Source of the DNA: Squalus acanthias
Lineage: Eukaryota
Reading direction: 5' to 3'
Length of the DNA: 64,000 bases
Assembly: GCA_030390025.1 (NCBI GenBank)
Contig: CM059440.1
Location: 28,520,001-28,584,000, forward strand
Made by a program: the position numbers and the translations under genes. Positions 19,535 to 59,650 of this stretch are shown piece after piece (positions within the stretch are counted from its first letter, which is position 1; each line of letters begins with the position of its first letter). The notes under the pieces were generated by a model. That model saw nothing but the letters and a program-made list of their open reading frames with translations. It searched no databases and had not been told where the DNA came from.

Positions 19535-19658
19535 AGATACTCAAGGCAACTGTCACCTCCTGCGAGTGGAGATCACTCTGAAAGGAGCAACGTACCATAT
19601 TGCATTCAGTAACTCTGAACAGCTGCCGCCACCATTCCGCATCGACAACTTTTCAGAG
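19535..19658 (+). CDS. VPS13D: VPS13D exon (DTQGNCHLLRVEITLKGATY...PPPFRIDNFSE)
   Basis: ttgcag acceptor, gtaaat donor; 124 nt, phase 2-0. Confidence 0.95.
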
Positions 19659-20623: not shown

Positions 20624-20859
20624 GTTGCAATTATTTTCAACCAACATGGCGTGGCAGAGCCAAGACTAAAGACAGAGGTAAAACCAGCCAGCTCACTGGA
20701 TTATGCCTGGGACGAGCCTGTCCTTCAGCCTTTCATCACGCTGACAGTGAAAGGGGCAGGCTCATCGGAAATTACCTGTGATATGAATGACTTCAAAGAG
20801 TCCAAACAGCTTTACTATGAAAATTTCATCTACATCGCTGCTACACATACCTTCTCTGG
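20624..20859 (+). CDS. VPS13D: VPS13D exon (VAIIFNQHGVAEPRL...YENFIYIAATHTFSG)
   Basis: tatcag acceptor, gtaggc donor; 236 nt, phase 0-2. Confidence 0.95.
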
Positions 20860-21225
20860 GTAGGCTTCAGATTTCTGTTGCCCGGAATTACATTTCCAGT
20901 CAGCTTTTTAATATTCTTTATTGGTTTTGATTAATTGGCTGCAACTTTAGGAGCATGAGGTGGTGGTCTCGAACCATTGTCATGTGCTTTCAAAAGGCAT
21001 TTTCAGCTAAAAGAAAGAAATGTATTGTTTCTATATTGTTTGCTGCATTTGAGTTTAGAGTCTAGAGTTCTAGAGGAAACAAGGGAATCTCTGACTCTAA
21101 GCTCAAATGCAGCCAACGATATTGCGCTACAGCTCACAGGAGTTATTTCCATAGCTGTGTATTCAAAACTGATCTCTTAGTGCGTGCTCAAGGTAGATAG
21201 TCAGAGAGAAGTGTGTAGTCAAGGT

Positions 21226-21360
21226 AGGTATTTGAGGCATTGGGACCAGTTTTGTGGTAGGTGTGACCTATACAAAAGGGACGGTCTACACCTGTGCAAA
21301 GATGGAACTGAAGTTCTCGGGGTAAATTTTGATAAAGCAGTTCGGGAGCATTTAAACTAG
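21226..21360 (+). pseudogene. CR1 ORF1 C-terminal remnant (SGNH-esterase-like)
   Basis: RYLRHWDQFCGRCDLYKRDGLHLCKDGTEVLGVNFDKAVREHLN*; DGLH motif typical of CR1 ORF1 esterase domains. Confidence 0.85.
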
Positions 21361-24302
21361 TATGGCAGGGGGCTAGAAACCCATGTAGTGAAATAGAGGA
21401 AAGTGAAAGGCAGACAGAAATAAATGGTAAAAAGGAGAGGAACAAAAAACAAAGGGCCAAACTAATTCATAAAAAATGTGAGCATAAAAAAAGCCTGAGG
21501 GTTTTATACCTTAATGCGAGAAGCATCAGGAACAAGGTAGATGAATTAGCTGTGGAAATAGAGGTTAATAATTATGATCTAATTGGGATTACGGAAACAT
21601 GGTTGCAGGGTGAGCAGGGCTGGGAGCTTAACATACAGGGGTATTCAGTATTTAGGAAGGACCGACAAAAAAGAAAGGGAGGAGGGGTAGCATTGCTGGT
21701 AAAAGAGGGGATAAATGCAATTGAAAGGAAGGATATTAACTCAGTTAATACAGAATCTATATGGGTGGAGCTAAGAAATAGCGAGGGGCGAAAAACATTA
21801 ATAGGAGTGGTATATAGGCCTCCAAATAGTAAAATAGAGGTTGGGGAGGGCATCACGAGGGAAATTAGAGAAGCGTGCAATAAGAGCACAGCTGTCATCA
21901 TAGGTGACTTTAACTTACATATAGATTGGACTAGCCTAATCAGTAAAAATAATGAGGAGGAGGAATTCCTTGAGTGTTTAAGGGATGGTTATCTGGATCA
22001 ATATGTCGAGGAACCAACTCGGGAACAGGCTATATTGGACTGGGTACTGTGCAATGAGAAGGGACTAATTAGTAATCTTGTTGTACGGGGACCCTTGGGT
22101 CAGAGCGATCATAACATGATCGATTTCTCACTCGAAATGGAGAGCGAAGAAATTGACTCAGAGACTCAGGTCCTGAATTTAAACAAGGGGAATTATGATG
22201 CCATTAGACGGGAACTGAGTAGGTCTGATTGGACAACGTTCCTGGGAGGACTGGAGGTAGATAAACAATGGCAAGCATTTAAAGATAGAATGACAAAATT
22301 GCAAAAATTGTTTATACCAATCTGGCATAAAAGGAAATCTAAAAAGGTGACTCAACCGTGGATAACAGGGGAAATTAGAGACAGCATAAAATCCAAAGAT
22401 AGGGCGTATAAAATAGCCAAAAAACGCGCCAGAGCGGAAGATTGGGAACAGTTTAAGATAGAGCAAAGGAGGGCAAAGGGCTTAATCAAGAAGGGCAAAA
22501 TAGCTTACGAAAGCAAGCTGGCGGAAAATATAAAAACTAACTCCAAAAGCTTTTATAAGTATATCAAGAGGAAAAGACTGGTGAAAACCAAAGTTGGTCC
22601 ATTGCAGTCAGATACGGGGGAATATATAATGGGAAATAAGGAAATGGCAGACCAACTAAATGCATACTTTGGGTCAGTCTTTACGAAGGAAGACACAAAA
22701 AACCTCCCTGGGATATCGGGAAAAATAGGGACATTGGCAAAGGAGGAACTGACGCAAATCAATATCTCTAAGGATATGGTGTTAAGGAAGCTAAAGGGAT
22801 TGAAGGCGGACAAATCCCCAGGGCCTGATAACATGCATCCTAGGGTACTGAAGGAGGTGGCCCTAGAGATAGCGGATGCACTAAGCATGATTTTTCAGAA
22901 TTCATTAGACTCGGGAACAGTGCCCATGGATTGGAGGGTAGCTAACGTTACCCCACTATTCAAAAAGGGGGGTAGGGAAAAAGCAGGTAATTACAGACCT
23001 GTAAGCCTTACATCAGTTGTGGGCAAAATGCTGGAGTCCATCATTAAGGATGAAATAGCCGAGCACTTAGCAAATGGGGACAGGATAGGACAGAGTCAAC
23101 ATGGATTTACAAAGGGTAAATCGTGCTTGACTAATCTATTGGAATTTTTTGAGGGAGTAACTGGTAAAATAGATGGGGGAGAGCCAGTAGATGTGGTGTA
23201 CCTGGACTTCCAAAAGGCCTTCGATAAGGTCCCACATAAAAGATTAGCATGGAAAATTGAAGCTCATGGGATAAAGGGGAAAGTATTGACGTGGATAGAG
23301 AACTGGCTGTCAGATAGAAAACAGAGAGTTGGAATAAACGGCTCATTTTCTGAATGGCAGGCAGTAACAAGTGGGGTACCACAGGGATCTGTCCTGGGTC
23401 CCCAGCTGTTCACAATTTATATTAATGACCTGGATCAGGGAGTCGAATGCAGCATTTCCAAATTTGCAGACGACACTAAACTAGGAGGGGGGGTGGGCTC
23501 AGAGGAGGAGACCAGGAAGCTCCAGAGCGATTTGGACAGACTGGGTGATTGGGCGGATAAATGGCAGATGCACTATAATGTGGACAAGTGCGAAGTTATC
23601 CACCTTGGGTGCAGGAACGGGAGGGCAAATTATTATTTAAATGGCAATAAATTGGGAGAGGGGGAAGTACAGAGAGACCTGGGTGTTCTTGTACACCAGT
23701 CACTGAAGGCGAGCATGCAGGTGCAACAGGCGGTCAAGAAGGCAAACGGTATGCTGGCCTTCATAGCAAAAGGGTTGGAATACAGGAACAGGGATACCTT
23801 GCTGCAGCTGTACAGGGCACTGGTGAGACCACACCTCGAGTACTGTGTACAGTTTTGGTCGCCTCATCTGAGGAAAGATGTTCTTGCCATGGAGGGGGTG
23901 CAGCGGCGATTCACCAGGCTGATACCAGGAATGGCGGGATTGACCTATGAGGAGAGACTATGTAGTTTAGGGATGTACACACTGGAGTTTAGAAGATTGA
24001 GAGGGGACCTCATAGAAGTGTATAAAATTCTGACAGGTCTAGACAGATTAGATGCAGAAGGAATGTTTCCCTTGGCGGGTGAGAACAGAACTAGAGGACA
24101 TAATTTAAGGATAAGGGCTAAACCATTTAGGACAGAAATGAGGGGGAATTTCTTCACTCAGAGAGTGGTGAACCTGTGGAACTCATTGCCACAGAGGGCA
24201 GTGTACGCCAGCTCATTAAATATATTTAAGAGGGAATTAGATATATTTCTACAGGCAAAAGGGGTTAAGGGTTACGGAGAGAAGGCGGGGACGGGATACT
24301 GA
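21351..24302 (+). CDS. CR1 ORF2: APE endonuclease plus reverse transcriptase (about 983 codons; start mechanism unclear)
   Basis: Frame open from 21336 to TGA at 24300-24302. EN motifs YLNARS, ITETW, YRPP, GDFN, SDH; RT motifs GVPQGSVLGP, FADD. The ORF-track start at 21552 is a GTG inside the EN domain. Confidence 0.93.
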   Translation, partial: FKLVWQGARNPCSEIEESERQTEINGKKERNKKQRAKLIHKKCEHKKSLRVLYLNARSIRNKVDELAVEIEVNNYDLIGITETWLQGEQGWELNIQGYSVFRKDRQKRKGGGVALLVKEGINAIERKDINSVNTESIWVELRNSEGRKTLIGVVYRPPNSKIEVGEGITREIREACNKSTAVIIGDFNLHIDWTSLISKNNEEEEFLECLRDGYLDQYVEEPTREQAILDWVLCNEKGLISNLVVRGPLGQSDHNMIDFSLEMESEEIDSETQVLNLNKGNYDAIRRELSRSDWTTFLGGLEVDKQWQAFKDRMTKLQKLFIPIWHKRKSKKVTQPWITGEIRDSIKSKDRAYKIAKKRARAEDWEQFKIEQRRAKGLIKKGKIAYESKLAENIKTNSKSFYKYIKRKRLVKTKVGPLQSDTGEYIMGNKEMADQLNAYFGSVFTKEDTKNLPGISGKIGTLAKEELTQINISKDMVLRKLKGLKADKSPGPDNMHPRVLKEVALEIADALSMIFQNSLDSGTVPMDWRVANVTPLFKKGGREKAGNYRPVSLTSVVGKMLESIIKDEIAEHLANGDRIGQSQHGFTKGKSCLTNLLEFFEGVTGKIDGGEPVDVVYLDFQKAFDKVPHKRLAWKIEAHGIKGKVLTWIENWLSDRKQRVGINGSFSEWQAVTSGVPQGSVLGPQLFTIYINDLDQGVECSISKFADDTKLGGGVGSEEETRKLQSDLDRLGDWADKWQMHYNVDKCEVIHLGCRNGRANYYLNGNKLGEGEVQRDLGVLVHQSLKASMQVQQAVKKANGMLAFIAKGLEYRNRDTLLQLYRALVRPHLEYCVQFWSPHLRKDVLAMEGVQRRFTRLIPGMAGLTYEERLCSLGMYTLEFRRLRGDLIEVYKILTGLDRLDAEGMFPLAGENRTRGHNLRIRAKPFRTEMRGNFFTQRVVNLWNSLPQRAVYASSLNIFKRELDIFLQAKGVKGYGEKAGTGY

Positions 24303-24335
24303 ATTGAAGGATCAGCCATGATCTCATTAAATGGC

Positions 24336-24374
24336 GGAGCAGGCTCGAAGGGCCGGATGGCCTACTCCTGCTCC
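24336..24374 (+). other. CR1 3' UTR stem-loop (probable RT recognition element)
   Basis: GGAGCAGG...CCTGCTCC inverted repeat just before the octamer tail. Confidence 0.7.
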
Positions 24375-24962
24375 TATCTTCTATGTATCTATGTATCTAT
24401 GTATTCAGTAGGGAAGATTTTAAGAAGAAGTCTTGCTGGAGAAGAAACCTACATAATTTTTGTTTTGAAAACGTTAAACAATTTAATGACTCCTGTGTTG
24501 TGTCTCCATTTCTTCCCATGCCAAGATCAACTCAGCTGGTGGAACAACGTGTTTGTGGTCTTGCATACTGTGCCACAGATTTACATGTTTGCACAAGTGA
24601 CCACGTACACAGTATCTTCCAGAGCGACATCAGGTGACTCTCCCACAAGAAAGCAAGAAAAGCCAAATGGAGTTTCAAAAATGGTGAGGGGAGCTGACTG
24701 GAACGAAGTTTCCTACCTGCTCCTTGGCCAGTGAGCGGACTATTTCAGAGCTGAAGGGGAGAGACATGTAAATAAAGAGCCCAGATCTTCTGCAAAGCTA
24801 AAGCTGCATGGCTCTGGAGGAAACAAGGGAATCTCCAACTGCAAGCTCAAAGAGCCCAGAAAGCCTTTTAAAATAAGAGAGCAGCTTACACACACATTCT
24901 GAGAAATATGTTCAGATCCAAGTTATCTAGTTGCAGCGGAATCCAGTGCTTGGAAGATGAAA

Positions 24963-26256: not shown

Positions 26257-26785
26257 AAGAACATAAGAAATAGGAGCAGGAGTAGGCCATTCGGCCCCTC
26301 GAGCCTGCTCCGCCATTCAATAAGATCGTGGCTGATCTTCTACCTCAACTCCACTTTCCTGCACTATCTCCATATCCCTTGATTCCCTTAATATCCAAAA
26401 ATCTATCGATCTCTGTCTTGAATATACTTATCGACTGAGCCTCCACAGCCCTCTGGGGTAGAGAATTCCAAAGATTCACCACCCTCTGAGTGAAGAAATT
26501 GCTCCTCATCTCAGTCCTAAATGGCTAATCCCTTATTCTGAGACTGTGACCCCTGGTTCTAGACTCCCCAGCCAGGGGAAACATCCTCCCTGCATCTACC
26601 CTGTCAAGCCCTGTAAACATTTTGTATGTTTCAATGAGTTCACCTCTCATTCTCCTAAACTCTAGAGAATATAGGCCTAGTTTACTCAATCTCTCCTCAT
26701 AGGACAATCCCCCCATCCCAGGAACCAGTCTGGTGAACCTTTGTTGCACTCCCTCTATGGCAAGTATATCCTTCCTTAGGTAAGG
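26257..26785 (-). mobile_element. CR1 LINE 3' end, fairly young
   Basis: Minus-strand QQRFTRLVPGMGGLSYEERL...TRGHSLRI; 3' UTR very similar to 24300-24385. Confidence 0.92.
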
Positions 26786-27329
26786 CAGACTGGAGTGTTG
26801 GCAGACTGCTTGACCATGGAGAATATCACAGCTGAACCCAATTCTATTCTAACTAGATAGCAATCTCTCCCCCTTCCCAGCCCAGGGCACTGATGTCAAT
26901 TGTAGCACTACTTCACAGATCAGCTAATTCAGCACAGACCAAGCATTGTACTGAGGATCGCCTTGGTCTGTAAGGCTTGGCACCATACCAGGCAGCAACG
27001 TTATAAACTGAGCCTCGGAAGGAGCCAGTTTTAATTTATTTTTAACTATTCTGTTAGCCAATCGTTGCTGGGGAGGATATGCATTTTTATTCTGTATACA
27101 AGGAGTGTATTTGGTGGACGGCAGAGGAATAATGGTCTTTGCTGGATTCAGTCACTTGCATCTGAGAGTTGTGTCAGAATGACGATAGGATGAGGGAGTT
27201 GAGAACAGCAGCAGGAAGAGTGGAACAAAACCAATATAGCAGTTATAGGCCTGTTAATAAAGAGTTGATCAGGTTGGTACTGAGTAGGGGAGACCTACAG
27301 TAAAGAGAAACTTTTTTAAAGAACTAAGC

Positions 27330-51063: not shown

Positions 51064-53067
51064 CATCAGCTGGCTCTGCACTTGTCCTTTTGCTGCACTG
51101 TCTATCTTTTAGGTTTAAACAGTACTTTGATCCTAAATATAGTCACCAGAGAGAAATTATTCCTTCTTAAGACTTCACTTTAAATATTTTTCTTGTTGTA
51201 GTTCACATGAATGTGAATAAACTAGAGGGAGGTGAATAAACTAGAGGGATGTATAAAGATGCATTTTTCTTCACATAAAAGTTATATTAAGTAGCAGTCC
51301 TGTCTGTCACATTTAACAAACTGCAAAACCAGTGATAGCTTCAGTGGGTCTCACCTTCCTTGTTATACTGCAAGTTGTAAATTATGTGGAAATTGATTTA
51401 AAAACACTGATAGGAAGGAAAAGCAACAAGATTTTTACACTTTTCCCTGATACAAGTGTATTCTGAATACAAGCATTGTATCTTCACCTATAATTTCTAA
51501 GCTGTATTGTAATAAGTGTCCAGGATTGTGATGTTATTGGAAAAAATAATTAGCTTTCAAGTGCTAAAAGTGTTAAGCAAGATTGTCTGACTCCATCTGT
51601 GTGATGAACAAGCAGCTGCCCAGTTTTATGCAGGGATCTGCAGATGTTCCATTTTACATGGTTTTAGGTTGCATCCAAAATAATTTACAGCACCCTGTTT
51701 GTACCACAGTGCATCGAAAGGTCACTTGGAAACTTTTATCCCTTATTTGCAAATTATTTGTCCAAATTTTTGTAACCTGACCAATCCAGTACGGTTATAT
51801 GTGAAGATGCAATGATGTTATTCAGAATTGCCGCAACAAATGTTTAATCAACAATAGTGTAAAACTCTCGTTACTTTTCTTTTATCTGATTCTGCTAACT
51901 TTGTCCTGTAAATGTTGTACTCTGTAGACTAGTGGAGAAATCAACTTTCCCAAAACAATTTTGATGCAGTTTATAATTTACAACCTGCTGGATCTTGGGG
52001 GAGATGAGGAGCAGAGATTTTTGCAGCCATAAAGTCTTCCAGGGTGGGAAGGGTCCTACTGGCTGGAGTATGTCCGTTTGCACTCACATTAGTGTTGTTC
52101 TCATAATAAAGCCATCCTGAGCTGTTGTGTGAGGATGCATTTTTTATGCTGGATGTTTACTGACAGAACTTCTTCGTGCTATTTTATAATGTGAATTATC
52201 AATTGCTGGGAACGTTGCATCGATAGTGTTTTGCTATTTGTTAACGAGTGCTAACAGGACTTAATATTTTAACTGAATAACAAAATTATACGAATGTCTG
52301 TATATACCCTTGAAAAATGTTTGTGGTTTTATTGACATAATATGGGAGGAAGACAGTTTTCTTTTGCAGGAGGGCAGTTAAACTTTGTTGCAAATGACCT
52401 GGTAAAGAAATTGATAAAAACTAAACCGTGCAAGTGATAGAAATCTGATCAAAAGCAGAATGTTTTGCACATGTGCTGCAGGTCAGTCAGCATCTGAAAG
52501 AGAAGTGTTAACATTTGGGGTATGATTCATTCTTTATGAAAGGCTGCACCCGAGATATTAATCTTTCAGATGCTACTTGACCTGTGAATTTTCTGTTCTT
52601 AAGCATTAATGCAAAGGGAATGCAGGTTCCAGCCATTGGGTGGATTCGATAAGATGCTTTTATACTGCTGTGCTGCCACTGCCTCTGGATACACTGGTCT
52701 CAAGCAGCCTGTGGCAACTTCAGAATAGGTTTACTCCTATGGTGTGAGCCCCATGCATTGGGAGCCGGTGGCACTACCACGGTACTTAACCCAATTTAAA
52801 AGTAGCTATAGCGAACCAAGCTGAGTTTCCAGGAACCCAAAAACTGTGAACGCAGACAGCCAGCCCTGTGCATTTTGCTCTGTGAAAGTGAGCCTAGCAC
52901 GCCTTCAGAAACTGGCTCTCCAGTCAAAGTGGGAGAGTGGCACACCGGCATTTCTCTTCCCAAACAGGATGCTGGAAGAGCACCTTAAGGAGCTTGTTTT
53001 TGCCCAGGTTTTAAATGTCTCTCTCAACTAATGTTGTTCCAATAGAAAATGATTGAGCTTATTCGAT

Positions 53068-53164
53068 AGGGCAAATTTTATGGGGCTGTATTCCCAGTCC
53101 GGAGCCTCATTTGATGAGAGTGCTGGCCTCTACATTGGGGACACAGCATCACAAAATTTACCCT
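53068..53164. mobile_element. Small palindromic MITE
   Basis: AGGGCAAATTTT / AAAATTTACCCT ends, with internal GCTGTATTCCCA / TGGGGACACAGC pairing. Confidence 0.55.
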
Positions 53165-53502
53165 CCTATATGTCAGACTCCATCACCAGAATTGTCAAAT
53201 TTAATTTTTAATGGTGAGGAATACCAGCTTGAACTGTAATCTACATAGCAGAATGTTGCTGTGAACTGTATTTTGCATCTTTAATTCCACTTTACTGAGT
53301 GTTTATTTAATTTAAAAAGGCACTTCTCATTGACTTAAGTAGGATGTTCTGTTCTCTTTCTTGTAACTGGTAGTGTGCTACTGTCGGACTAAAATGGTTG
53401 GTCTGTTTGAAGTGCTTGTTGTTACCCAGGGACAGAGTATCACATCTATGTAACAAACTGTGGCTGCCCTCTGGATGAACCTGCGAAGGAAGCCAGCATT
53501 TG

Positions 53503-53519
53503 GGGTCATTCCAAGTTCA
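53503..53519 (+). promoter_or_regulatory. Consensus DR5 retinoic acid response element
   Basis: GGGTCA ttcca AGTTCA, an exact RGKTCA-N5-RGKTCA match. Confidence 0.5.
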
Positions 53520-55113
53520 CAGTGTGGACTTTTGACTGTCCTGTGTATGAACCGGTTTGGGGACCCCTACAGGGATCAGTCACTCAGGCCAGTAACACAA
53601 ACCAATTTCCATTCGGCATCTGCGGGGGCAAATCCACAGGGGTTGCTCGAGGGAGCTACCAACCTAATCAGGCATCTGTGGAGACAGCCCAGAGGGGGGC
53701 CCACTGGACTACCCAGCTAATCAGACATCCACACAGACAGCCCAGTAGGGAGTTTGCTCCCAGGTTAAATCGCCAATGTGCTATTGTCAGAATGCATTAC
53801 TGCCCCAAGCTAACGACAAGAGGGGGAGCTGATTAAGGGCTGGAGCTCAGAGAATGTGACAGCAAGAATAACAGAGTCCTCAGGACCCTGCAAATAGCCA
53901 CACGTTTGTTCAGTCATGCTCAGGAAAAACAGCAACTGGACCATTTGTTTTCTGTTACGTTAGAAAAGAGCTCAAACCTTGCTCAGCCAAATGTCCACTG
54001 ATGCCTTCTGTATGTTCCAGAACTGCTCCAGCGGGCACTGTGAACTGCCCAATTAATACTGCAAGGCTGATTCCACAGCATCAATCTCACACTGAAACAT
54101 TAACTATCTTTTGCATGTATAGTCGTTTGAAAGTCAGATTTGCCCATTTTGTTGCTGTTCAGTGTTTCCCAGGTGCCTGGAGAGGTCTAAGCAGGTCACC
54201 AAGCAGAAAGTGTAATGTTGTCCTGTGTGGGCTTATGCACAGCCAGAAAGAATGGTAGGCAGCAGCTGTTTGTTTACATTTGCCATTGCTGTGTGGCTGC
54301 CTCCCTGGGATAATTGCTTTTTAAGGTTTTCTGTTGATCTGGAGGCAGCAGGCTTACCGTCCTGAAGTTGGGTCCGCCACCAGCCACATTACTGCAATGT
54401 GAAGGGGCAGTAGAGTGAGCAATGTGCTACTGTCCTGCAAGGGCAGGGCGCAGACACAAAACGGCAGCAAAAGGCGGCGGTTTACATTTGCATCTGGGAG
54501 ACCCTTGGGAAAACTGAGGGGGTTCTTGGCTGCTGCAGATGCAATGTTGCCAATGTTTTTTACCAGATCTTCCCAGCCGCTGGCCTTGGTGCAAACAGCA
54601 AATAAACATTAGGGTTGCCGCCGGCCCTACAGCACAACAGCCCAATGCCCCACTGAACCCTATTTCAAAGCCGCTTTCGTGTTTGCGTTGCCCTGACCCA
54701 CTTCACATGCTGAATGGTATTAAATTACCAGCAGGACAGCATGGTTCCCCCTGGGGCAGAAAGTGACTGGAGAATTACATTCAAATATTTACTCACATAT
54801 CATCACACATCACATTTCAGCAGAAGATTTAAACTCAGCATGAAGAGATGGAAGATTTTTACCCCAGACTAAGTCCAAAGTAAATAATTTTTGCTGTGCT
54901 TACACTTGTGGAGAATTGGCAACAAATGCTGACTTGTCATTGCTGATTGTCACATTTCGGGATTTCTTGACCATTTTTGCACAAAGGCTTTGGAAAATAG
55001 TTACATTTAAAGCAAAGTATATTCACACACAAGTACATTTTTAAAGGCATTGAGGCGAAAGGTGGTTAAAATGCAAACTTTCCCCAAAGATTTCAAACAT
55101 TAAGCAACTCATT

Positions 55114-55177
55114 ACCCTGTCTCTGTAATCAATAACATCTCACACCCTGTCTTTATAATCAATAACATCTCATACCC
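55114..55177. repeat. 30-bp tandem duplication
   Basis: ACCCTGTCT(C/T)T(G/A)TAATCAATAACATCTCA x2. Confidence 0.9.
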
Positions 55178-56873
55178 ATTGTGTTGGTCCCTGGTCCTCG
55201 GTGCTAGGTAGGGGATGACCGACACAAGCCCTCTCCAGTTGTGAACACAGAGATAAAAGATAGGGCAGAGAGACACACAAGCCATCAGTTTCTTAAAACA
55301 GATAGCTTTGAGAGCAAGCTTTGGGCAGGCTTGGAAGGAAAATGCAGAGGATGCTTAGTAGCAATTTTGTCTAAGTCAAGCAAGACAACCCACTGATGTG
55401 GGGAACTATAGTATGTCCATTATTTTTATATTACACAAAGACAAGTTGTAATGATTGATCAAACTATTGCTCTGTATCATCACTTACTGTGAAATCAGCT
55501 TAGCAATTCATATCTGGCAGTGTCTTACCAGGTGTTTTCTCAATCTGCTTTTTAGAAGATTGGGGAGACACAAGTGGGCATGAATATCTGGTTCAGATCA
55601 TAAAGGGGCACCATTGATATGCCCCTGAACTATGCTATGGTATAATTTAGTTATTGGCCAGTGTGAGTCTATTCTGACACTCAAGGAATGAGGGAATCAC
55701 TTATGGGAGTGGTTCAATTATTGGACATGTGGGTCTGGGACTAATTGGAAGAATTTTTCTGTAATCTTAAGGACAGGTGATCTTGTCTTTCCGCGACGTC
55801 TTGATGGTTGTTCAGGGAGTGTGCAGACCCCAAGTAAGTCTGCTAGTGGGTATTCAAGAAGTGAAAAAAAGTTAGGGAGTATTTCGACCAGTCTTCATGT
55901 TGATGCTGCACAAGGTTGACGGATGATTGATAACATTTGAATAACGAGGAGGGTCTGTTGCATTGCTGTCCCTCACACTGAGTGATGGTTAGCATGCCCG
56001 CTGCTGTTAATGTGGCTTATGTCAGCAGCTCAGTGCAGGCAGGTTTGTCCCACTCAAAGTGCAGCAGTGCACTACATCAGAAGGCTTAATAGTTTTTTAC
56101 TCAGTGAGCAAGCCTTCTAGCTATTGGGGAAGGTATGGCAGGCAGATACCAAGTCAAAGAGCGCAGCTTTAAAATAACTACATGGGCAGTTGTTTTTCCT
56201 GTTACTTTGGATGCAACCCCAATATAAATGGGGCAGATTACAGAGCACTGGGACCTGGAGACACAACTATAGGATCATTTCCTGAAGCAGTTCTACAATA
56301 TAAAAGTGGCTTTAATTAAGTATTGCCTTGTTTGGAATGCTGCTAATAGGGGACGAGATGAGAACTGGATACAAGTTATTTCAGTGAAAATGTTTGCTAC
56401 TCCATGGACAAGTATCACCTTCACTGCTTTCTTTCCAACGACCCCCACCCCCATTGCAAAGAATATAATTGAATTTATGGGAGGTGTATTGAGAGAGAAT
56501 ACGGCTTTGGAAGCCCTGAAGCTAAATGGCGAAAGCATTCACTGTTCTGGTTCAAGGCATCTGATACATTTTTAGATGCTTATGTTGTGGCACCAGTTTC
56601 AGGCGAGCACCCCTACATTGAATTGCTGGAACCACTCTTTCCATTTCCATTTCCGCCCTGTGCCGTTTTCCATTGGACACTAGCCAAAAGTGGAGCCAAC
56701 ACATCCAGCAGTAATTCACGGGACCGAATAGTGGGTCTACAGTTGCCGCCTTGGGTAAGAGACCTGTGAAACCATGGGGAGTCGGTGGAAAGATAGCAAT
56801 CTCCCATAATCCAACCTGAATTCTTTCAGTATAAAGGTGCCTTTGAGTCTTCCTTGGCTATCTATCTATCATG

Positions 56874-57095
56874 AGCTGCTTTTATATTGGTGTCAGTGGG
56901 GTTTCTGCCCAAGGCGCAGGTCTTGTACAGCCAGCAGTAACTCTCTCATGAGCTCAGTAAACCATTTTTTTAACTAGATCTTCCCAGTTTAGTGAATCCA
57001 GCATGATTTTGAGATTACCAGTAGCTGCACAATGGCCATGCTTAGAGACCATGTCACTAACATCCCCACTGACACCAATATTAAAAAAGCAGCTG
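56874..57095. mobile_element. MITE with roughly 28-bp TIRs, possibly Tc1/mariner-type
   Basis: Perfect 18-bp ATATTGGTGTCAGTGGGG / CCCCACTGACACCAATAT plus AGCTGCTTTT / AAAAGCAGCT; the right end abuts TA. Confidence 0.6.
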
Positions 57096-57584
57096 TATTA
57101 TCTGGAAGCTGTAGGACACAGCTTTATCATTTAGGCCTTTAAGTGGAATTATTAAAGCAGTCATTCTTTTTCTAAAGGGGGCTATTTTTGGGAAAATTTG
57201 GAATTTATACAGGCATCTGGGTGTGAAGCTGTGTGCTAGTGCCCCTTGGTAAGGCATGGTGCAGTGCTGTCATTCTGTAATCAGCATGCAATTTTTATCC
57301 TGCTTTCTCTGGAAGTAATTTTATATATGAACCAGGTAATGTGGGAGAAAAAATCCAGTTAATTCACAGTATCCATGCAATCCTGTTATCAGCTGTAGGA
57401 AATAATGTGTTTGAAGCTTCATGTTTTTGCACTCACTGTTTCTCTCCACCCCCCAAGACACTGATCATTTCAAGTGAGCATTGCATGTTGTTGACTGGAA
57501 AAGCTGCTAATTGTTTTTCTGTGCTGACATCCTGCATGTGTCTAAATGGGTCAAAACAAATAAACCCCCAGGGATAGATGGTAT

Positions 57585-58855
57585 TTATCCCAGAGTTCTG
57601 AGAGACTGGAGAGGAGATTTGTGAGACTGACAGTAATTATGAAGGAGTTAGTGGACAATTTGGAATTACTAGTACATTGGAAACGGGTTCATACGGTGCC
57701 CATTAGTCTTACTACCATTCCATGTAAAATAATAGAATTGATTATCAGGAGTAAACTTGAGGATCATTTGTACAATAACCTAGTTAACACAGTAGTCATA
57801 GTTTTAGAAGGTGAAAATCCTGACTGACCAATGTCCCTGACTTCTTTGAAGCAGCGAGAACCCACGTAGACTGTGTTAGTTCTATGACATGGCGTACCTC
57901 GACTTCCAAAAGGCTCTTGATAAAGTGTCACATGAAAGTCTATTCATTAAACTCAAAGCTGTTAACCTGGGAAATGATAAGAAACTGGCTGACGGGTATT
58001 AGACTTGTGTCAAAGTTGAAAGGAAGTAGTGAGTGAGGTGCTTTAGGGCTCGGTACTGGGACTATTTCTAATTTATATAAATGACCTAGAATGAGAAATT
58101 CCATGGCAAGTGGTCAAATTTGCAGATGATGCCAAATTCGATGGGGCAGTGGAATCGGCTTAGATATTGCAGAATGAGTTGGACAAGATATGCAAGTGGG
58201 CAGAGCAATTCAGTGCAGACAAGTGGAAAAAATGATGGCATGCATACTCTATGAATTATGTTGAAACAGCTAAAGATAAAGCTGGAAAAGTAATAGACTT
58301 GGCACTAAACATGTCCAACCAATGCAGACAAACAAAGGATGTTGAACTACATAGCGATCAAACTTTATAGTGCCCTGGTCAGACTACACCTTGAATACTG
58401 CATCCAGTTTGGTTGCCAAGAAACGAGAGGCGTTCAAGTGCTGGAGGTGGGGGGAGAGATGATCCACAAGGCAGATCCCTAGTGTCAAGGGTCTGAGCTA
58501 TGAGGAAAGACTTGGGCCTTTTAGCCTAGAAAGAAGGCATGTGAGATATAGGATTGTTATGGGTATAGAGAAAGTTACCCTGGAATGTTACTTGAAAATA
58601 AACTGCAAGTGTAGAACTAGAGGACACAGGTTCAAACTAGTAAACAGTAATTTTAGAACTAATATCAGGAAATTCTTCACACACACTGATCAATGTATGC
58701 ATTAAATTCAAGGTTAGAGTAGTGAGTCAAAATCCCTAGAATCCATTTAAAAAACAATTGGATGCTACATTGGGGTGACGTTAGGATCTCTCTGCATGGA
58801 TGAATTAAGATGAGCCAAAAGGCCTTCCTCATCCATAATTGTGTTGTGATCTTGT
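57585..58855 (+). mobile_element. Old CR1 LINE RT and 3' fragment
   Basis: Degenerate YLDFQKA.DKV.H, YINDL, KFADDAK and TRGH.FKL motifs plus 3' UTR. Confidence 0.85.
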
Positions 58856-58929
58856 GAATGTGCTTTACCCTAGGCACTGAGTGTAAGCAGGGTGCAAAAA
58901 CAGGCCGGACCAGTCTCTGCTTTTACAAT

Positions 58930-59650
58930 AGCAAAATACTGCGGATGCTGGAAATCCGAAATAACAGAAAATGCTGGAAACACTCAGCAGGCCAGGCAGC
59001 ATCCATGGAGAGAGAAACAGAGTTAACGTTTCAGGTCAAAGACCTTTCGTCAGAACTGGAAAAAAGCAAGTTTAGGGGCTGGGAAAAGGGGGAGGGGGAT
59101 GAAAGAACAAAAGGGACGGTTAGTGATAGGATAGAAAGCAGGAGAGATTAAGAGACATTGAGAGACATTAAGAGATATTCAAGGCAAGAGGAGGTGGTAA
59201 TGGGACAGGTTAAGGAACAAAGGATGGCTTTAGATGAAGTGTGAATTGCGCTGGCAGAATGAAGGACAGCTGCCATGTGGGAGGGAAGAAAAAAAGGGGA
59301 CAAACAAAAAGTGTGGATAAAAAAAATGTGACAGGAGCCGAGGTTATGATCTGAAATTGTTGAACTCTCTGTTGAGTCCAGGGGGCTGTAGAGTGCCTAA
59401 TCGAAAGATGAGGTGTAGAGTGCCTAATCGAAAGATGAGGTGCTGTTCCTCAAGCTTACGCTGAATTGAGGAACAAATGAGCTTATTTTCCCAGCCCCTA
59501 AACTTGCTTTAAATTCTATTCCATTTCCTGCTTTTTTCCAGTTCTGACGAAAGGTCTTTGACCTGAAACATTAACTCTCTCTCTCTCCACCGATGCTGCC
59601 TGACCTGCTCAGTCTCTGCTTTTGACTGACGCTGAGCAATTTTGTTTTAT
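58930..59650 (-). mobile_element. 5'-truncated Penelope-like element with an inverted terminal repeat
   Basis: Minus-strand GIY-YIG C-terminal peptide RKLEEQHLIFRLGTL...QPPGLNREFNNFRS (about 59347-59460, with a 27-bp duplication at 59387-59440); inverted arms about 58984-59086 and 59486-59613. Confidence 0.85.
59021..59057 (-). ncRNA. Candidate minimal type I hammerhead ribozyme motif
   Basis: Minus strand AGTT-CTGACGA-A-AGGTC-TTT-GACCT-GAAA-CG-TT-AACT. Confidence 0.55.

Follow-up and report, generated by a model that had tools for sequence, protein, structure and literature searches.

In the window, by which I mean the whole 64,000-nucleotide stretch of Squalus acanthias DNA analysed here (contig CM059440.1), a 5'-truncated copy of a young LINE family lies on the forward strand, and the junction between its two reading frames carries the probable site of a programmed ribosomal frameshift. 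The copy and its parts are as follows.

21231..24404, + strand: 5'-truncated copy of a young, apparently CR1-type LINE family with an esterase-type ORF1, whose 3' end is (CTATGTAT)3
21232..21360, + strand: 3' remnant of ORF1, 42 codons plus TAG, the C-terminus of an SGNH esterase ending ...EHLN before the stop
21336..24302, + strand: intact ORF2 frame (Pfam PF03372, PF14529, PF00078)
21351..21357, + strand: slippery heptamer U_UUA_AAC, phased with ORF1 (from sequence and conservation)
21357..21506, + strand: lysine-rich linker without Met in the -1 frame, extending from shift site to endonuclease
21358..21360, + strand: ORF1 stop, TAG, abutting the heptamer (from sequence)
21368..21372, + strand: GGGGG, 11-15 nt past the heptamer, Gly in the -1 frame; candidate stimulator
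about 21513-22112, + strand: APE endonuclease within ORF2 (Pfam)
about 22971-23603, + strand: reverse transcriptase within ORF2 (Pfam)
24303..24404, + strand: 3' UTR plus octamer tail (from sequence)

The letters bear out what a preliminary description had read from this junction: ORF1 ends in CAT TTA AAC TAG, with the stop at 21358-21360; TTTAAAC at 21351-21357 is phased as X_XXY_YYZ in the ORF1 frame; ORF2 lies at -1 relative to ORF1, is open from 21336 and overlaps it by 25 nt; and the ATG at 21362 belongs to another frame, where it opens only 4 codons. The ORF2 frame numbers 988 codons, and its first in-frame ATG is, as had also been said, at 22116 (codon 261), downstream of the Pfam endonuclease match at codons 60-259.

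The family of this copy (30 loci at 99.7-100% identity; 705 candidates) has full-length members with an ORF1 of 315 aa, which PF13472 marks as an SGNH/GDSL esterase (protein P0001, E 1.4e-11), and with an ORF2 in which the APE endonuclease precedes the reverse transcriptase (RT) by Pfam; 5' truncation and a short tandem-repeat 3' tail are seen in the family. Among named proteins, the best relatives of ORF1 come from sharks and rays (50-69%) and from alligator (34%), and bird-type ORF1 ends match a cluster containing a duck protein. Judged from these ORF1 relatives and from the type of tail, the family appears to be a CR1-type LINE with an esterase ORF1, resembling CR1-clade esterase elements (chicken CR1, turtle PsCR1, shark and ray CR1) in the zinc-finger-like N-terminus and esterase of ORF1 as well as in the APE-RT ORF2 and the short-repeat tail. 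The elements are A/G-rich along their sense strand. In the window copy, similarity to the family starts around 21231 (query base 32) and the ORF1 start is absent. The earlier proposal of an ORF1-ORF2 fusion made by frameshifting thus finds support as regards the signal of the family, but not for the window copy itself, which as a 5'-truncated copy carries the signal and can make no fusion.

Slippery-type heptamers occur 10 times between 21100 and 24302; as a phased heptamer in one copy is weak evidence, the case rests on conservation, for which the 30 copies of the window family, being near-identical, are uninformative. Among 23 representatives, hand-picked as intact-looking and related by descent (ORF1 esterase identity 14-95%), the X_XXY_YYZ pattern, phased with the preceding ORF, is strict in 22, the remaining one being G_TTA_AAC. 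The heptamer codons are TTA in 23/23 and AAC in 20/20, position 1 is T in 22/23, and a stop, TAA or TAG, follows directly in 19/23. On the tree, synonymous changes number 0 in the heptamer codons and 1-9 in 24 further conserved codons (catalytic D and H included), and none of 140 ordinary third positions had fewer than two changes. The heptamer, its synonymous codon choice and the -1 phase, the conservation of which had been proposed as a check, are all kept across divergent families. An unbiased tally comes from 119 G000 loci, retrieved with protein queries that excluded the ORF1 end: TTTAAACTA is exact in 108 of them, with one mismatch in 10 and two in 1. I read the 18 of 135 G000 loci that are out of the -1 phase, and the degenerate heptamers in 2 of 17 metagenome junctions (L097, L098), as decay of dead copies; the junction counts exclude 30 of 47 metagenome loci that stop short of the ORF1 end and 7 of 9 genome-contig loci without an esterase ORF1 end. 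The contigs of four further runs, with no heptamer change listed, belong to the same families as G000 and add little weight, and scans of viral contigs gave no matches.

Such constancy could in principle be that of the proteins, namely of the Leu-Asn at the esterase C-terminus and the Gly of the ORF2 leader, joined by chance or by a bias in base composition, and indeed the Leu is found in 23/23 representatives and the Gly in 17/17, in elements whose sense strand is rich in A and G. However, the window ORF2 uses TTA for 17 of 96 Leu and AAC for 20 of 51 Asn, both of which are invariant at the site, and the codons of catalytic residues change freely. Before the Leu stands one of several residues (H, G, A, C, Y), though the third base of the codon is constantly T, and teleost L2-type esterases have different ends. 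The tree of synonymous changes largely refutes this protein-level explanation, which I now find hardly credible.

More distant relatives carry T_TTT_TTA (L120, L208, L209), and L091 has G_TTA_AAC, with ORF2 at -1 in all four; this change of site preserves slipperiness, not protein. By protein, the switch to U_UUU_UUA is seen in two separate clades, and by DNA in 3 loci, and the ORF1 stop lies 1-2 codons past the site in L120, L125, L208 and L209. Of 115 distant ORF1 proteins whose end is complete, 100 have LN, FL or FF within the last 5 residues (background 1.7%), counted with a profile alignment that itself ends in LN. In a fixed register these ends are F-L-nonN in 30, nonF-L-N in 34, F-L-N in 5 and neither in 7, the last seven having longer tails. 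The Asn has been lost in two separate clades, each of which has the Phe, and as these are about two independent events, the Fisher P of 2e-9 for the trade-off between F and N is not usable as a probability. The aromatic residue preceding the Leu may have a structural role too.

A motif of RNA processing or transcription, be it a 3' splice site, a branch point or an internal promoter of TATA type from which an ORF2-only RNA would arise, is brought to mind by the likeness of TTTAAA to a TATA variant and of CTAG to the splice acceptor consensus. I hold this to be very improbable, as families with TAA have no AG there, TTTAAA is missing from the U_UUU_UUA variants, and an ORF2-only RNA would still be AUG-less in 9 of 19 linkers; a weaker point is that contigs of 4 probable RNA runs, whose RNA status is guessed, span this region and show no joint at the junction.

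Within the linker, stops number 7 in the -1 frame versus 387 and 705 in the other two frames (5896 codons each). The expectation that no AUG would precede the endonuclease was borne out in the window family, where 30 of 30 copies have none in frame, but not across the representatives: 9 of 19 have Met-free linkers, and the other 10 have an in-frame Met at scattered codons 4-62. An overlapping or adjacent in-frame stop-start of the SART1 type is absent from the family. An AUG adjacent to the stop is found in just 2 of 23 representatives, the bird-type L096 and L102 (ATG 2 nt after the stop), and no start-like codon common to the representatives was found past the stop.

A conserved slippery site together with a -1 ORF2 that has no start codon makes it likely that the RT is produced by ribosome slippage. 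From this comparison of sequences I consider it highly probable that ribosomes undergo a programmed -1 frameshift at the junction of esterase-type CR1 elements, by which ORF1 and ORF2 are translated as a fusion. Most ribosomes would terminate at the adjacent TAG or TAA and release the 35-kDa ORF1 protein, while a minority would slip one base back on UUA AAC and read past the stop, yielding a fusion of ORF1, endonuclease and RT with about 1296 aa (147 kDa); as with gag-pol, the ratio of ORF2 to ORF1 would thereby be set low. The heptamers most prone to shift on mammalian ribosomes include U_UUA_AAC, and the HIV site is U_UUU_UUA (PMC5009743, in excerpt). The CR1 junction is similar to coronavirus U_UUA_AAC and HIV-1 U_UUU_UUA gag-pol in its heptamers, their phase and the position of a structural-protein ORF upstream of a polymerase ORF; unlike in viral gag-pol, no protease that could cut the fusion is found by Pfam in the CR1 family proteins.

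Alternatively, ORF2 might be made separately by termination and reinitiation, at an AUG if present and otherwise at a non-AUG codon, with TTTAAAC, the stop and the run of five G downstream acting as a signal for reinitiation or slow termination. Human L1 employs an AUG-independent termination-reinitiation, which counts in favour of this route, as do the abutment of motif and stop, the two bird-type ATGs and two invariant bases in the G run. The route is also an established one in SART1 (PMC3708506, PMC3894237, both in part). However, it predicts neither the in-phase X_XXY_YYZ pattern and the swap between two canonical heptamers, nor the hairpins at frameshift spacer distance in distant relatives, nor a stop 1-2 codons off the site in L120, L125, L208 and L209, and a common start-like codon is lacking; I regard it as unlikely. 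SART1, L1 and the 2A-bearing elements face a like problem, that of low-level ORF2 from a bicistronic RNA (PMC3894237, in part), but in contrast to the UAAUG stop-start of SART1, CR1 has no overlapping in-frame AUG, and its product would be a fusion.

The least certain part of the frameshift model is the stimulator in the hairpin-free, vertebrate-type families. A bare heptamer normally shifts only weakly, which counts against frameshifting. In the distant group, the 40 nt past the site fold more stably than all background windows in 4 of 5 loci (0 of 42, 28, 42 and 42 windows as stable), a hairpin at spacer distance as in viral -1 signals. Vertebrate-type CR1 differs from the viral signals in having no hairpin and, as far as a duplex scan shows, no pseudoknot, and in the stop that adjoins its site: unusually stable local structure was found in 0 of 17 representatives, nor in L091 and L120, with or without G-quadruplex terms, and no conserved hairpin or G-quadruplex in these families exceeds background stability. 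The GTATGG/CCATGT stem once suggested as stimulator finds no support (MFE -7.8 kcal/mol, z -0.43, 70 of 200 shuffles equally good), and sister families do not keep it. Among 17 vertebrate-type representatives, a G stands at positions +11 to +15 in 16, 17, 17, 14 and 15, respectively; G12 and G13 are invariant, and the -1 frame has Gly in 17/17. In a duplex scan for a long-range partner of this run, the best duplexes differ among three families and none is shared; the YRPP codons, tried as a partner, are not consistently C-rich. The best candidate for the vertebrate-type stimulator is slow termination at the adjacent stop in combination with the five G that occupy +11 to +15.

In the arterivirus PRRSV, a short, unstructured and conserved motif, CCCANCUCC, lies 3' of the shift site at a distance of 11 nt (PMC5009743, in excerpt). 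The CR1 G5 likewise starts at +11, which would liken it to this protein-stimulated frameshift in spacing only, as the PRRSV motif is C-rich whereas the CR1 run is G-rich, with no binding protein known. A bolder possibility, which I consider less likely than not, is that the RT of the dominant LINE of most vertebrates is an unprocessed ORF1-ORF2 fusion made by a structure-free -1 frameshift, triggered by the adjacent stop and the G5 at +11. The G5 would either form a G-quadruplex or be recognised by a protein, whether ORF1p itself or a host factor that binds G-runs, and the trigger would have taken the place of the hairpin of the distant relatives; this would be a natural protein- or quadruplex-stimulated transposon frameshift, open to host control.

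The translation of ORF2 in two-ORF LINEs is called an open question in reviews (PMC3894237, PMC3708506, in the parts available), and in most vertebrate genomes the elements of the CR1 group are dominant (PMC13343379, in part). If true, a conserved -1 frameshift would answer this question for the CR1 clade and change the annotation of CR1 ORF2, which would then lack a separate start and include the esterase and coiled coil; it would also explain the tie of the RT to ORF1 assemblies and give LINEs and retroviruses one more trait in common, a gag-pol-like one. Should the G5 be the stimulator, it would represent a kind of signal (G-quadruplex) listed in 2016 as anticipated but unknown in nature (PMC5009743, in excerpt). 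No report of a CR1 frameshift was found in the literature searched, which did not extend to the original CR1 papers. The title of one of these, by Haas in 1997, reportedly speaks of 'two closely spaced ORFs'. The available portions of PMC13343379, PMC4316615, PMC2734521, PMC2612034 and PMC3905857 contain no discussion of a frameshift, an overlap or the ORF2 start. In Dictyostelium, the APE-type non-LTR elements TRE5-A and TRE3-A both need a -1 frameshift for ORF2, according to a legend in a review (PMC5911963, in part); they differ from CR1 in clade and in the type of ORF1.

Some copies (L197-L206 and others) have ORF1 and ORF2 fused at the DNA level through one surplus G in a run of G that lies upstream of the heptamer. 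As all of these stem from one extra G, lie scattered among normal copies and are accompanied by other length changes, they do not make up a lineage with fused ORFs; assembly errors may account for them.

In the CR1 copy of the window, ORF1 ends in CAT TTA AAC TAG, with the slippery heptamer T_TTA_AAC at 21351-21357 directly followed by the stop codon (21358-21360), as the preliminary description had it. Its account of ORF2 is likewise borne out: the -1 frame is open from 21336 to 24302 (988 codons), the first in-frame ATG is at 22116, and the ATG at 21362 is out of frame and opens 4 codons. ORF2 contains an APE endonuclease (codons 60-259) and an RT domain (codons 546-756), and because its first ATG comes after the endonuclease, AUG initiation would lose this domain. 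The copy is 5'-truncated at approximately 21231 and retains 42 ORF1 codons; it is incapable of an ORF1-ORF2 fusion of its own, and the finding concerns the family. Exon-like segments of a VPS13-family gene flank the copy, which has an intact ORF2, is in sense orientation and is downstream of the following two:

19539-19658, VPS13-family exon-like segment, PF25036 match
20624-20860, second exon-like segment of the VPS13-family gene, no Pfam match

Also present in the window are a second CR1 3' fragment (26261-26786, minus strand, 75% identical) and shorter CR1-like pieces at 24813-24851 and 57890-57938.

A DNA search of the Squalus acanthias genome gave 705 candidates for this family, from which 30 loci were retrieved; they are 99.7-100% identical and all share the junction (30/30). 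The full-length ORF1 has 315 aa and contains an SGNH esterase; shark and ray proteins are its best named relatives. The CR1 esterase has about 53,000-59,000 first-look candidates in this genome, which holds several near-identical families with intact ORFs, and together these observations suggest that CR1 was active very recently and in parallel.

As selection cannot be read from near-identical young copies, I sought divergent families. With 71-residue pieces of the esterase that stop short of the ORF1 end as queries, five protein searches yielded 119 loci in the same genome, of which 108 contain TTTAAACTA exactly, 10 differ by one base (5 being G_TTA_AAC) and 1 by two. ORF2 is out of -1 phase at 18 of 135 loci from this genome, probably through decay of dead copies. 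Over 117 linkers, the -1 frame stretches from heptamer to endonuclease, each reading frame comprises 5896 codons; the -1 frame contains 7 stop codons and the others 387 and 705, which indicates that the linker is kept open from the junction on. Two families in this genome (L197-L206, L172, L180, L190, L195, L045) carry a G8-9 run immediately upstream of the heptamer. In many of their copies one added G there places ORF1 and ORF2 in a single frame, which can reach about 1290 codons; these scattered single-frame copies are possibly homopolymer assembly errors.

Metagenome contigs with host DNA gave 47 loci, several similar to bird (clusters with duck protein) or alligator CR1. The 17 that reach the ORF1 end carry T_TTA_AAC (13), G_TTA_AAC (L091), T_TTT_TTA (L120) or a degenerate site (L097, L098). 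Searching genome_contigs with an endonuclease query gave 9 loci; an esterase ORF1 end is present in two of them, L208 and L209, and each combines T_TTT_TTA with an ORF2 in the -1 frame. In a set of 111 proteins, 32 complete esterase ends terminate in LN; teleost L2-type esterases end otherwise. Animal CR1 DNA also occurs inside prokaryote assemblies, as in a protein named Pseudomonas SGNH hydrolase (P0013) and the contigs of L207, L208 and L209, with labels including Aeromonas, Chitinophagaceae and Bathyarchaeota; this is host contamination.

The synonymous codon choice singled out in the preliminary description proved invariant among 23 intact-looking representatives chosen by hand (10 from Squalus, 11 from metagenomes and 2 from genome_contigs, with pairwise identities of 14-95% in ORF1): Leu is TTA in 23/23 and Asn is AAC in 20/20, while the window ORF2 uses TTA for 17/96 Leu and AAC for 20/51 Asn. 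A T precedes TTA in 22/23, as the third base of codons for His, Gly, Ala, Cys, Tyr and further residues. On the tree, no synonymous changes fall on the TTA and AAC codons, whereas each of 24 other conserved columns, among them catalytic Asp and His, has 1-9, and none of 140 ordinary third positions has fewer than 2 changes. Judging from these codons, the constraint at the heptamer acts on nucleotides, and protein constraint or chance is an extremely improbable explanation.

A profile built from five distant ORF1s collected 150 cluster representatives, with a complete end in 115. LN, FL or FF occurs within the last five residues of 100/115 (background 1.7%), a count from a profile that itself ended in LN and from members mostly known as protein only. 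Compared in a fixed register, the ends fall into four types: x-L-N 34, F-L-other 30, F-L-N 5, neither 7 (longer tails). In a FastTree tree of these proteins, Asn was lost in two separate clades, with Phe in each. L-N corresponds to U_UUA_AAC and F-L to U_UUU_UUA, and the DNA of L120 and of L208/L209 does contain T_TTT_TTA; the ends of these loci are similar to those of members of the two Asn-less clades. The aromatic residue before Leu may be partly structural. The site changes among distant relatives while slipperiness persists. The F-L-N ends (P0139, P0140, P0155, P0157, P0186), known from protein alone, could hold both heptamers in tandem, as an intermediate of the switch.

The junction itself is real, and I am fairly confident that it works as a programmed -1 frameshift. 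From the observed anatomy and conservation I infer tandem tRNA slippage from UUA AAC to UUU AAA, by which ribosomes would escape the adjacent ORF1 stop and yield a fusion of 315 + 981 = 1296 aa (about 147 kDa) alongside the 35-kDa ORF1 protein. Alternatively, RNA processing or an internal promoter could be responsible, which I consider very unlikely; contigs of four probable RNA runs show no joint at the junction and speak mildly against processing.

No paper on CR1 retrotransposons and programmed ribosomal frameshifting was found, nor any CR1 frameshift in the literature searched, including the accessible parts of PMC5009743, PMC3708506, PMC13343379, PMC4316615, PMC3905857, PMC2734521 and PMC2612034; older CR1 papers, supplements or Repbase/Dfam notes may hold an earlier remark. 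The first of these, a frameshift review, leaves CR1 unmentioned in those parts, and an excerpt of PMC3894237 treats ORF2 initiation as an open question without naming frameshifting. According to a figure legend in PMC5911963, TRE5-A and TRE3-A need a -1 frameshift, so that such shifting in a LINE has precedent.

The local stem GTATGG/CCATGT, initially proposed as stimulator, did not hold up (z -0.43). In the distant group (L117, L120, L125, L208, L209; tree support 99-100%), hairpins lie about 8-13 nt past the heptamer in L117, L125, L208 and L209; 0/42, 0/28, 0/42 and 0/42 background windows of the respective loci are more stable, with modest shuffle z-scores (-0.9 to -2.2). L120 has no hairpin more stable than background, and 0/17 vertebrate-type representatives have one of this kind. 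The latter have two things in common: a stop codon that abuts the site, and a G run occupying +11 to +15, where G is present in 16, 17, 17, 14 and 15 of 17. Within ORF2 bodies, 10-15 of 2870 positions are the start of a GGGGG. Because its -1 frame translation is Gly in 17/17 (GGG in 14), the run may be conserved through a protein-level role. No long-range partner common to the three families compared was found for it. The accessible text of PMC5009743 places a PRRSV protein-binding motif 11 nt past the shift site, a spacing like the start of the G run, and describes natural G-quadruplex stimulators as anticipated but unknown; as models for a CR1 stimulator, both are leads only.

The supposed lack of an early AUG holds for the window family, where 30/30 copies lack an in-frame AUG ahead of the endonuclease, and for 28/29 copies of a second family, but not throughout: of 19 representatives with a located endonuclease, 9 have Met-free linkers, while the linkers of the other 10 contain Met, at codons 4-62, and in two bird-type representatives Met follows 2 nt after the stop. 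By this comparison an AUG is neither needed nor fixed in position. Reinitiation, with the junction motif as its signal, is an unlikely general explanation, and could contribute in families with a linker Met. In a LINE with a non-esterase ORF1 (L210:1230-1240, L212:353-363), ORF2 follows in frame 0 right after the ORF1 stop, in the context GAA TGA CAA and with Met absent until the endonuclease start, making this junction a candidate for stop-codon readthrough.
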